From Candidatus Binatia bacterium (GTDB lineage Bacteria; Desulfobacterota; Binatia; UBA9968; CAXXLF01): DNA of 64,000 bases. Location of the stretch: positions 384,001 through 448,000 of the forward strand of contig CAXXLF010000002.1 of assembly GCA_963664015.2 (NCBI GenBank). Reading direction: 5' to 3'. Under the pieces are notes generated by a model. It had not been told where the DNA came from, did no database searches, and was given only the letters and a program-made list of their open reading frames with translations. Below are positions 10,879 to 14,215 of the stretch, piece by piece (the first letter of the stretch is position 1; every line of letters starts with the position of its first letter). A program made the position numbers and the translations under genes.

Positions 10879-11997
10879 ATGATAGCTGACCATGCCGAGA
10901 CCGTAGGCAGTCTTCTGCGCCCTGATTGGTTGCTAAACGACCGCAAGGACCTGTCTGCGGGTATTATCAACGAAGGTAGGCAGGCTAGATTCAAGGAAAT
11001 TGAGAATCGCGCGGTCGATGAGGCCATCCGGCTCCAGGAAACGGCGGGACTGGCGATTGTTACCGACGGCGAGATGCGCCGATTGTCCTTCCAGGGTCAG
11101 ATGGTGGAGGCCGTGAACGGATTTGGCGAGTATGATATCGACGCTTTCCTGTGGGGGGAATGGCAAGGTGATAGAGATGTCGGCCACTGGAACCTGGAGC
11201 GTCCCCACACACTGGGAGTCGTCAATAAGTTGGCTCCCAAACGCTACCTATCCGTCGACGAGTTCACCTATTTGCGCGACCGAACTACACGAATACCCAA
11301 GATTACACTGCCAAGCCCGAGCCTCTTTGCCAACTTCTGGTCCGAGGAGCGCTCCAGGAATATCTACCCGACACTGGATTCTTTCCTGGCCGATATCGTC
11401 CGTATCCTCCAAAGCGAGGTCGCCGAGCTCACTCGCGTTGGGGCCACCTATATTCAGCTGGATGCGCCCCACTATTGCCAGCTCCTAAATCCCAGGACCC
11501 GGACCTTCTACGAGTCTCGAGGCTGGAGCATGGACCGATGGTTGAGGAAAGGAATCGAGCTGGACAATGCCGTAATCGACCACGCCCCATCAGTCACCTT
11601 CGGCTTTCACCTGTGACGGGGCAACCAGGGCAGCCGGTGGCTGTCCGAGGGAGGCTACGACGTAATCGCGAAAGAAGTATTTTCAGGAGTCCGGGCCCAG
11701 CGACTCTTGCTCGAATTCGATGACCCGCGTTCCGGCTCCTTCGAACCGCTGAAAGAAGTCACCGAGGAGAAAACGGTTGTCTTGGGGCTAGTTTCTACCA
11801 AACGGCATCTGCTGGAGAGCCAAACGGATCTTATCCAGCGAATCCAAGCCGCTGCCCGATTCCTACCCCTCGATCGGCTAGCTTTGAGTCCACAATGCGG
11901 CTTTGCAAGTTCGGTGATGGGTAATCGCATCTCGATCACGGATCAGTTAAAGAAGCTCCGCCGGGTTGTGGAAACGGCCCGGGCGGTCTGGGGCTAA
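10879..11997 (+). CDS. Cobalamin-independent methionine synthase II-family (MetE C-terminal-like) protein, probable selenoprotein, 372 aa with UGA readthrough
   Basis: ORFs 10879-11616 and 11707-11997 share one frame. Motifs VGSLLRP, TDGEMRR, KITLPSPS, YIQLDAP, GFHL[TGA]RGN, LLEFD, LSPQCGFAS. The TGA at 11614-11616 occupies the Zn-ligand Cys position. Confidence 0.85.
11628..11646 (+). promoter_or_regulatory. Candidate bacterial SECIS hairpin
   Basis: GGGCAGCC-GGT-GGCTGTCC: 8-bp stem with one G-U pair and an apical GGU, starting 11 nt after the in-frame UGA. Confidence 0.7.
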
Positions 11998-12106: not shown

Positions 12107-12775
12107 ATGGCAAGCCAAGAATTCATCGACTCTCTGCTAAAAGACATCATTCACCCGGGGGTCGAGCGTCTTATGGAGACACGCTTTTTCTCCGAGTTGA
12201 GAGAAGGAAAACTATCCGTCAAGAGACTACAGGGATTTGCCTTGCAGCATTACCTGCACAACGAATCCATCAACAGGGGGTTCGCCCTCTGCATAGTGAA
12301 AAATGCCCATATCCCCGACCTCTATGAACACTTTGCCCATCAGTTTCTCGAAGAGTATCACCACCCCAATCTGGCCAAACGCTTTGGGCTGGGGCTGGGG
12401 CTCAAGGAGGAAGACTTTAAACAAATCACCCCGGTCTTTGAGTGCCTCGCGCATACAAGCGCAGTCCTACGGGGGATGCTACTCGGCGCTGCAGGAGAGA
12501 ACCGGACCGGTGCCCTGGTCAACGAAACCATGGTCTGCCGCTATTCTACCGAATTCAACAGTTGTCTACACAAGCACTACCATCTTTCCAGTGATGACTG
12601 CCAATTTTTCGTGGTCCACGCCGTGGCGGACATCGAACATATCAGGCTGAACGCAGAAGTCATCGCCCGTTACGTTCAGACCCCCTGGGAAGAAGAAGCG
12701 TCCGTCGCGTGCGCAAAGAATATGGTTCGCTTCAAAATCGCCAAGTTCGACGGCATCTACGAAAGCTACGCTTAG
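12107..12775 (+). CDS. Heme-oxygenase-like diiron enzyme (PqqC/TenA/CADD-like)
   Basis: EEYHHP, E in NETMV and FFVVHAVADIEH give a metal-ligand pattern; strong AGGAGG RBS. Confidence 0.75.
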   Translation: MASQEFIDSLLKDIIHPGVERLMETRFFSELREGKLSVKRLQGFALQHYLHNESINRGFALCIVKNAHIPDLYEHFAHQFLEEYHHPNLAKRFGLGLGLKEEDFKQITPVFECLAHTSAVLRGMLLGAAGENRTGALVNETMVCRYSTEFNSCLHKHYHLSSDDCQFFVVHAVADIEHIRLNAEVIARYVQTPWEEEASVACAKNMVRFKIAKFDGIYESYA

Positions 12776-13165: not shown

Positions 13166-14195
13166 CTAACTCTCAGCCTGCGTGAACAGCTTGGACAAAT
13201 GATGCCAAGGAGTCGGCGACACTCGGGCTACGCCAAGGTTTTCCTCGATGTGAACGATCTGCTTCATCTCCACCAGAGCTATTGTAACCCCCGGGGCCGA
13301 GCGAACGAACTGAAGAGCGCGCTGGACATCACTGAGAGTCCCAACTTTTGCGCCGCCTCCACGGTGGTCAACATCTCCCCCTCAACGAGTGGTTCCTGAG
13401 GGGCAAGGCCTGCTCCATGCCGAGATTCAAAGGCAACTGAATGACCTTGAAATGGTGATCGTCCCCGCCGACTTTCCGCGCGATGGCAATGACATCCTCC
13501 AGGGAAAGGTAGTCTTTGGCGCCAGGGTCGTTACGGTAGCCGTTCCAGGTTGCGGTCCCGTACATACGGATATTACTCGCCGATACGGCTTCTTCCGATG
13601 CCTCAAAAGCGGTCTGGAGACGCCAATTGAATTCACTACGCGGGACCTCTGCCAGCTGGGATTCAGGATTGTGGACGTAGTAGAAGTCGATACACTGAAC
13701 CGATAGGTTTCTCAGGCTGTAGTCGAGTTGATCCAAAAGGTAAGCGGGCATCATACAGTGGCAGCCGGAAACGATGTCACCGGCTTTGACGATACCCGGC
13801 TCTATAAACATCTTTAGAAAATAGCTACGGACATCGTCCGGTGGCGCCCCATCAAAAGGGATAAAGCCCCCTTTGGTCGCCAGGACGATTTCGCTACGCG
13901 GGACACCGTTGCGGGCCAACTCCTTCAATGCAGCCCCGATGGCACGCTCGCTCCTCTGGAAGCGATAGTTGATGGCGCTATCGATGACGTTGCCACCAGA
14001 TTGGACGGTGCGAACGACAGCCTATCGATAGAGATCATCGGTATCGTCGTCGTGGCCTCCCAGGTAGGTCCCGATCCCGATGGAAGAGATCCAGAGGCCC
14101 TGCTCGTTATGGAAGTGTCCCTCGGCAACCTGATTCCTGAAGCGATCCCGGTATCCGGCGGTCCCTTCTTCCGTCGCCCAGGTCTACTGATTCAT
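13166..14195 (-). pseudogene. Aldo/keto reductase pseudogene
   Basis: ISSIGIGTYLG, IDSAINYRFQRSER, ATKGG, YVHNPE; two in-frame TAGs near the 5' end and a frameshift near 13380. Confidence 0.85.
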
Positions 14196-14215
14196 GAGTT
14201 AGTCCAGAGGAAGGA

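Follow-up and report, generated by a model that had tools for sequence, protein, structure and literature searches.

Probable selenocysteine at a predicted zinc-ligand position in a widespread, mis-annotated family of MetE-like proteins

Cobalamin-independent methionine synthases of the MetE type bind and deprotonate the thiol of homocysteine at a zinc (Zn) site, which in Escherichia coli MetE is formed by H641, C643, E665 and C726, with homocysteine held by S433, E484 and D599 (PMC7857596). These are proteins of ~750 amino acids (aa) in which an N-terminal barrel aids the binding of methyltetrahydrofolate. Single-domain relatives have also been described: the folate-independent 'core' methionine synthases MesA-MesD of Price et al. 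2021, four families <30% identical to one another, keep the Zn and homocysteine sites and take the methyl group from donors other than methylfolate (PMC7857596). A further group of ~370 aa comprises the uncharacterised Listeria protein 1YPX, deposited as a 'putative vitamin-B12 independent methionine synthase family protein', and the Firmicute proteins YxjG/YxjH (NF005085 / NF004875), each consisting of one PF01717 barrel without a folate domain; a Met T-box places yxjH under common control with methionine genes (PMC6004538), and YxjG is S-bacillithiolated under oxidative stress (PMC4360819). Here we analyse a gene related to this last group in a stretch of 64,000 nucleotides (hereafter, the window) from a Candidatus Binatia bacterium (contig CAXXLF010000002.1, positions 384,001 to 448,000). 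The gene is interrupted by one in-frame TGA, which very probably encodes selenocysteine (Sec), judging from comparison of its orthologs.

The predicted 372-aa product resembles 1YPX and YxjG/YxjH in size and in consisting of a single PF01717 barrel that lacks a folate domain, and its full-length alignment to 1YPX brings the H-x-C-R-G-N and P-Q-C-G-F motifs into register; the difference is that those proteins have Cys where the window protein would have Sec. With MetE (TIGR01371; 1XPG/1XDJ from T. maritima, 4L5Z from Candida), it has in common the fold of the C-terminal barrel (Foldseek E ~1e-19, TMq 0.71-0.75), by prediction the His/Cys/Glu/Cys pattern of the Zn site, and the G-S, D-G-E and Q-x-D-x-P motifs matched to homocysteine contacts, which are invariant here, whereas it is half as long and would carry Sec at the position of Cys643. 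MesA-MesD embody the same single-domain concept, and the likeness to MesD (3RPD), the sole Mes family compared, is weak. Outside this fold, formate dehydrogenase (Mo/W) and [NiFeSe] hydrogenase (Ni) provide the nearest parallel, as their Sec binds the metal, they occur as Sec/Cys pairs and their selenocysteine insertion sequence (SECIS) lies within the coding sequence (PMC13188914). In both, Sec stands in the first shell of the catalytic metal, as we propose for the window protein, but they are redox enzymes, and here the metal would be redox-inert Zn serving alkyl transfer.

When TGA is read as Sec (U), the gene is a single frame of 372 codons, with no further stop or frameshift between its ends (Table 1). 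The preliminary description of this window, made from the letters alone, had already treated two adjacent open reading frames (ORFs) as one gene split by a sole TGA with no other lesion, and our own reading of the frame agrees. The upstream ORF (10879-11616, 245 aa) ends at this TGA, whose context is ...VTFGFHL-U-RGNQGSRWLSEGGYD..., giving the motif H-L-U-R-G-N; the family-like segments LLLEFD, VVLGLVSTK and LSPQCGFAS do follow downstream, and the readthrough length is as proposed. The TGA is not peculiar to the source assembly. Contigs from two public runs (X1 and X3), possibly the gene's own source, are identical to the whole gene (0 differences), and a 585-nt contig from a seawater metagenome of another study (X9, depth 4.4) spans 11446-11997 with 14 differences and the TGA intact.

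The strongest evidence on the meaning of this codon comes from the orthologs. A six-frame search of 40 related genomes for orthologs and paralogs recovered eight orthologs besides the window gene (60-70% identity), each with exactly one TGA. When aligned, 9/9 orthologs from the window's order have the TGA at one and the same column. Weaker matches in the same search (<=46% identity) were without TGA, one truncated paralog excepted, and the 16 paralogs examined all have Cys at this column. The exception, in genome G002, was considered as another Sec form and rejected: it has Cys at the motif, and its TGA lies upstream of the matched part. A scan of GTDB with one genome per species returned 176 related stretches, of which the best 80 (57-69% identity) were examined; at the same codon, 36 have TGA and 44 have Cys. 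After the removal of two duplicates (L026=L045 and L030=L095), there are 87 distinct orthologs at 57-70% identity from many phyla, 43 with Sec and 44 with Cys, one of the latter (L113) reading H-L-C-K-G-N. Leaving out G061/L087, G098/L092, G106/L107 and G109/L112 gives 42 Sec and 41 Cys forms and the same outcome. The Sec/Cys pairing on which the preliminary description had built its reading is therefore a recurrent one.

Going by the titles of the records, Sec forms were found in metagenome-assembled genomes of Binatia, 'Deltaproteobacteria'/Thermodesulfobacteriota/Myxococcota, Gemmatimonadales, Acidobacteriota, Chloroflexota, Nitrospinaceae, Poribacteria, Cytophagia and Verrucomicrobiota; Cys forms come mainly from Actinomycetota (Gaiellaceae), Alpha- and Gammaproteobacteria and Chloroflexota. 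This spread may be inflated by binning errors, one Cys form being labelled Nitrosopolaris, an archaeon. A quick maximum-likelihood tree of 84 orthologs and six paralogs, calculated with the U column masked, and from which the two duplicates were dropped along with three incomplete genes (L033, L091, L094), groups the orthologs in one clade (SH-aLRT, a Shimodaira-Hasegawa-like approximate likelihood-ratio test, 100). It requires at least five changes between Sec and Cys, three of which are forced by well-supported branches.

The source genome (3.51 Mb in 2 contigs, 97% complete) has the machinery that Sec insertion needs, a point that the preliminary description had left to be looked up. Genes for selA (606 bits), selB (409 bits) and selD (373 bits), all over their cut-offs, and for tRNA-Sec (74 bits; called by ARAGORN as tRNA-SeC, anticodon tca) are clustered at C2:1306534-1322625, and selD itself contains one in-frame TGA. 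Among the other Sec-form genomes, selA exceeds its cut-off in 33 of 36; of the three below it, G042 has selB with an adjacent strong tRNA-Sec, G053 has a strong tRNA-Sec of 76.7 bits and G067 has only a borderline hit of 47.3 bits. Since 28 of 43 Cys-form genomes also score above the selA cut-off, Cys forms are found in genomes that have the Sec trait and in genomes that lack it, whereas the Sec forms, so far as the data show, are confined to genomes that have it. In the arrangement of these genes, selA, selB and selD are consecutive and the tRNA-Sec gene lies ~10 kb further on, and a Cys paralog of the MetE-like gene (41% identity) is found ~4.4 kb past the tRNA-Sec, possibly by coincidence (C2:1306534-1328123; loci L001, L002, L009, L012, L021).

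Downstream of the UGA, the transcript could form a hairpin, GGGCAGCC-GGU-GGCUGUCC, with an 8-bp stem and lying 19 nt after the UGA. Its 23-nt core folds at -14.2 kcal/mol (z -3.39; 1/200 shuffles equally good). The published bacterial SECIS model has an apical loop of 3-9 nt and an upper stem of 4-16 bp (PMC13188914, Fig. 2 legend), with G in the first two loop positions, a distance of 16-37 nt from the UGA and a minimum free energy <= -7.5 kcal/mol (PMC13188914), and the hairpin agrees with all four published criteria. It is present, at minimum as its 4-bp top stem, in 43/43 Sec forms; over their gapless alignment, 86.6% of the helix cells are paired, with practically no variation in the four apical pairs. 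Pair 24-36 links two wobble positions, one in a Gly codon and the other in a Leu codon, and among the Sec forms it is CG in 25, GC in 4, AU, GU and UG in one each and unpaired in 11, nine of these last being a GGCGGCC...GGCU(C/U)GCC variant in which the pairing is shifted in register and a U bulges out. In the X9 strain, a change at 11631 makes the same pair U-G instead of C-G. For covariation, the score is 0.150, compared with 0.110 in shuffles (0/500 reach it) and <=0.050 for slid partners. The loop Arg codon also sets the two forms apart: CGG, which makes up 23.6% of 1331 other Arg codons in the Sec-form genes, is used in 40 of the 43 Sec forms (CGT 2, AGG 1), while the 44 Cys forms have CGC 29, CGG 10, CGT 3 and CGA 2. 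As the sequences are phylogenetically related, these figures for the hairpin and its loop should not be taken as probabilities.

A gathering-threshold Rfam scan of the whole window called only a tRNA and no SECIS, and the SECIS of the source genome's selD, folded for comparison, has a different shape and was of no help. The hairpin as such was also tried as a Sec-specific mark and rejected, and the loop codon was used instead, as the 44 Cys orthologs hold 83.8% of the same pairs. As a separate observation, Cys forms of Actinomycetota (e.g. L096, L099, L104, L113), many from genomes with selA, carry a perfect 8-bp hairpin with a GCU loop, which may be a SECIS relic or may have been retained for some other reason. 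Short contigs of other organisms in runs X1, X3 and X6 match the window gene over only ~35-67 nt within 11593-11660, at >=90% identity; since foreign contigs match only there, the stretch holding the UGA and the hairpin is the gene's most conserved part at the nucleotide level across species.

The codons beyond the UGA are under purifying selection. In ten moderately close pairs of Sec forms with usable dS, the ratio of nonsynonymous to synonymous substitution rates (dN/dS) is 0.09-0.28 over the 118 codons after the UGA and 0.05-0.23 over the 60 codons before it; the relaxation that would have spoken against the preliminary description is not seen in these pairs, the downstream values being similar to the upstream ones.

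The window protein matches PF01717 (Meth_synt_2, the catalytic domain of cobalamin-independent synthases) over residues 34-346 (E 3.8e-13; 49.9 bits against Pfam's gathering cut-off of 21). Among NCBIfam models, NF005085 scores 233.3 bits against a cut-off of 313, a full-length relation over positions 9-368 of 368, NF004875 scores 206.8 bits against 576, and the canonical MetE model TIGR01371 gives 24 bits against 929.95, at profile positions 430-612 only. With HMMER, 1YPX is the nearest solved chain (E 1.3e-46, residues 5-372), and the match to 3RPD is far weaker (E 2.7e-8). An AlphaFold2 model from a 42-row alignment has one domain, with a predicted local distance difference test (pLDDT) score of 89.4 and a predicted TM-score (pTM) of 0.91; strand 240-245 leads into residue 246 and is followed by strands 275-279, 299-305 and 334-338. 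Foldseek places 1YPX at the top, then T. maritima and Candida MetE and MesD, and then MtaA-like and UroD barrels. The model thus describes a single-domain (beta-alpha)8 barrel of PF01717 that would belong to the ~370-aa 1YPX branch.

Residues H244, C/U246, R247, G248, N249, E279, C340, G341 and F342 are invariant in the 42-row alignment, as are G10-S11, D63-G64-E65 and Q193-x-D195-x-P197. In HMMER alignments, H244/U246 fall at the H-x-C and C340 at the C-G motif of both Candida MetE and 1YPX; likewise, E65 falls at the H-G-E and D195 at the I-Q-x-D-E-P of MetE, and S11 at the G-S of MesD. From these motifs, we infer the correspondence with E. coli MetE numbering, including E279 = E665, a position at which the local HMMER alignment to Candida MetE is unreliable. 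The predicted Zn site would then consist of H244, U246, E279 and C340, with metal binding suggested by homology to MetE. The preliminary description had placed the protein in the MetE family, and PF01717, the barrel fold and the H-x-U...E...C-G-F pattern fit a MetE-type Zn site as it had supposed.

Table 1. Positions in the window of the putative selenoprotein gene and of its predicted functional elements
Feature	Position	Strand	Evidence
Putative selenoprotein coding sequence, 372 aa, MetE-like (PF01717)	10879..11997	+	ATG start, TAA stop 11995-11997; PF01717, 1YPX, one-domain model
His244 codon, first predicted Zn ligand	11608..11610	+	42/42 invariant; on H of H-x-C in 1YPX and Candida MetE
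UGA codon, probable Sec246, in place of a Cys Zn ligand (E. coli MetE Cys643)	11614..11616	+	TGA/TGY column in orthologs, Cys in paralogs
SECIS-like hairpin: stem 11628-11635 / 11639-11646, loop GGU 11636-11638	11628..11646	+	Fold, covariation, loop codon
Glu279 codon, predicted third Zn ligand (LLLEFD)	11713..11715	+	42/42 invariant; ends model strand 275-279
Cys340 codon (P-Q-C-G-F), predicted fourth Zn ligand	11896..11898	+	42/42 invariant; on CG motif of 1YPX, 3RPD and Candida MetE

Taken together, these data make it highly probable that the locus is one selenoprotein gene, in which a hairpin directs the insertion of Sec246 into a MetE-like barrel with a predicted His/Sec/Glu/Cys Zn site that would serve thiol methylation. 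The recurrent TGA/Cys pair, the SECIS-type hairpin, the Sec genes and the downstream selection all support the Sec interpretation offered in the preliminary description. We propose that SelB carrying Sec-tRNA(Sec) would bind the hairpin and insert Sec at the UGA, and this insertion would yield the full 372-aa protein rather than the 245-aa stub. Given the positions of H244, U246, E279 and C340, a selenolate would replace one of the two thiolate ligands of the Zn. The metal would then bind and deprotonate the thiol of homocysteine, as in MetE, and the activated thiol would be methylated; by this analogy, the function is probably a Zn-dependent methylation of homocysteine or a similar thiol, and the Ser, Glu and Asp residues matched to the homocysteine contacts of MetE are invariant here. 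The protein has no folate-binding domain that would point to its methyl donor. Sec might be advantageous if a selenolate ligand made the Zn site more electron-rich and a better activator of the thiolate, and/or if it left the site less open to lasting oxidative inactivation than a Cys site; under oxidative stress, S-thiolation prominently affects the Zn-site Cys of both MetE and YxjG (PMC4360819). Where Sec cannot be had or is not needed, Cys orthologs would fulfil this function.

Two other explanations dispute that the codon is read as Sec. If the TGA were a real stop, the gene would produce only a 245-aa fragment and the frame behind it would be decaying, as in a pseudogene or a natural truncation, and gene callers do cut there: the window product is stored as 245 aa (P0005), and 105 of the 120 best database matches to it end likewise. 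However, the same 'lesion' is found in all 43 distinct TGA orthologs from many phyla without any other stop or frameshift, and the dN/dS values after the TGA argue against decay. Of the four Zn-ligand positions, three lie at or after the UGA, as do three strands of the barrel, and these stay invariant; the 245-aa fragment alone would therefore be unable to form the active site. By this comparison, the truncation appears effectively refuted, and the probability we leave to it is close to nil. The UGA could instead be decoded as something other than Sec, through a code 4/25 reassignment (Trp/Gly) or near-cognate readthrough with Cys/Trp. A gene call by the Joint Genome Institute (JGI) of ortholog P0054 has W at the codon (HLWRGN) and runs on beyond the true stop, where the C-terminus normally lies, in a W-rich tail; it was apparently made with a TGA=Trp code. 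Against such decoding, TGA terminates 3 of 10 Pfam-supported neighbouring genes with full Pfam coverage and is internal in none, so there is no genome-wide reassignment of TGA, and the selA and selB genes are without internal stops. The presence of selA in nearly all the other Sec-form genomes also speaks for Sec, it is only in the TGA forms that a synonymous site preserves the GGU loop, Trp is unfit as a Zn ligand and every non-TGA homolog has Cys at residue 246. We regard decoding as another amino acid as very improbable.

A third explanation accepts the selenoprotein and gives Sec246 in this branch a main task other than Zn binding, as a catalytic nucleophile (a transient methyl or alkyl acceptor) or a redox residue, or else proposes that the enzyme acts on a selenium compound such as selenohomocysteine or methylselenides. 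In most catalogued selenoproteins, Sec is redox-active or nucleophilic, and Sec methyltransferases do exist, namely arsenite methyltransferase and methylated-DNA-protein-cysteine methyltransferase (PMC13188914, Table 1). The methyl donor of the ~370-aa branch is unknown, and a gene for a TauE/SafE-type anion exporter is convergent to 18 of the Sec-form genes. On the other side, Sec and Cys forms alike keep H244, E279 and C340 unchanged alongside U/C246, as an intact four-ligand Zn site predicts, and Sec and Cys swap repeatedly inside one orthologous clade; moreover, the TauE link is restricted to one related clade and is not seen at the window's own locus. We consider this explanation, in either of its variants, unlikely.

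Several observations weigh against the reading of a Zn-binding Sec enzyme directed by its own hairpin, or limit how far it can be taken. The retention of the hairpin pairs by the Cys orthologs (83.8%, n=44) suggests that the stem top is partly dictated by the conserved S-R-W-L codons, which appear to be self-complementary, or that the structure is a fossil SECIS, so that only the loop codon and the UGA would separate the Sec forms. Shuffle tests overstate significance for sequences related by a tree, and a 76-nt context around the UGA folds no better than shuffles (z -0.94). The near-identical strain contigs in X9 (depth 3-6) have 25 differing sites, of which 17 are non-synonymous (11/16 sites before the UGA and 6/9 after), all at variable residues and none at an invariant one. 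As its NCBIfam scores are sub-threshold, the window protein seems to be a branch apart from the YxjG/YxjH-type models, and the literature searched holds no donor or acceptor assay for 1YPX or YxjG/YxjH. The source genome encodes MetH (1653 bits), so the Sec enzyme need not be its main methionine synthase; canonical MetE was not found there, and three or more paralogs with Cys (~40% identity) are present. With MetH and these paralogs present, the Sec enzyme would be one of several routes, or it would act on a related substrate. MesX (DUF1852, PF08908) had no match in the source genome, a search on which the control genomes are equally silent and which is thus uninformative.

This family is apparently uncatalogued. 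A 2026 review (PMC13188914), by its own account the most comprehensive inventory, covers 119 families and subfamilies, and the whole of its Table 1 has no PF01717, methionine-synthase or MetE-like entry, which bears out the earlier remark that this is none of the classical selenoprotein families. The main text of the deep-Sep paper mentions no such family, NCBIfam release 20 has no dedicated model for a Sec-containing MetE-like family, and the main text of PMC7857596 does not mention YxjG/YxjH, 1YPX or selenocysteine. No Sec-containing MetE was found in the literature searched, and full-text searches turned up no description of a Sec-containing methionine-synthase-like protein, a result that leaves a prior listing possible in the supplements of earlier surveys or in subscription journals. 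Likewise, neither Table 1 of PMC13188914 nor the literature searched contains a natural enzyme site in which Sec binds Zn.

The omission has a counterpart in the databases. Annotation pipelines misread the gene, with the window product deposited as the 245-aa P0005. Of the 120 best matches to the readthrough protein, 118 are Cys forms, one is the 245-aa stub of the window and one is the ortholog with W at the site (P0054). A search with the stub in a collection of 5.8 billion proteins gave 6202 matches at E <= 1e-40; the best 120 include, besides the stub and 14 Cys forms, 105 proteins ending in ...F-x-x-H-L, 95 of these 105 being 242 aa long. Where names are given, they are 'hypothetical protein', 'methionine synthase, partial' or a homocysteine methyltransferase. 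From the DNA of 45 loci, it is likely that all 105 end at a UGA. The sequence comparison thus points to a genuine, widespread selenoprotein family that is systematically mis-annotated.

The recoding mechanism would be standard; the new part would lie in the chemical role of Sec and in the enzyme family that hosts it. To our knowledge, Sec serves redox chemistry or binds a redox metal (Mo/W, Ni) in nearly every selenoprotein described so far. We lean, by a small measure, towards the view that this is the first natural enzyme family with Sec as a first-shell ligand of a catalytic Zn (His/Sec/Glu/Cys), widespread and with Sec and Cys exchanged repeatedly. If so, selenium would take on a new chemical task, as Sec bound to the catalytic Zn of an alkyl-transfer enzyme, and its biology would reach beyond redox catalysis to Lewis-acid alkyl transfer, with the selenolate tuning thiolate activation or protecting an oxidation-prone MetE-type Zn site. 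The 43 Sec and 44 Cys natural forms offer a ready-made experiment on the effect of selenium at a Zn-thiolate site, and a family model that includes the Sec position would repair the truncated and Trp-misread gene calls. The finding also makes the YxjG/1YPX-type 'methionine synthase II' branch of ~370 aa worth closer notice.

Regarding the gene neighbourhood, a gene for a 222-aa heme-oxygenase-like 'iron-containing redox enzyme' of the TenA-PqqC type (PF14518, PF03070) lies directly downstream (12107-12775, + strand). It is kept beside the selenoprotein gene only in genomes of the same family (L026/L045, L027) and not in other phyla. In one clade of Sec forms, a gene for a 250-aa TauE/SafE (PF01925) membrane protein is convergent to the MetE-like gene at 18 loci, and an isochorismatase-family gene lies upstream on the same strand at 8 loci; the loci with these neighbours include L028, L029, L031, L032, L068, L072, L074, L079, L083, L089, L091, L094 and L102, among others. 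No functional conclusion was drawn from the neighbouring genes. Elsewhere in the window (13368-14213, - strand), an aldo/keto-reductase-like frame runs upstream of a 186-aa ORF through a TAG at 14022-14024 (...DDLYR*AVVRTV...), which may reflect a pseudogene, a mistake in the assembly or some other cause.

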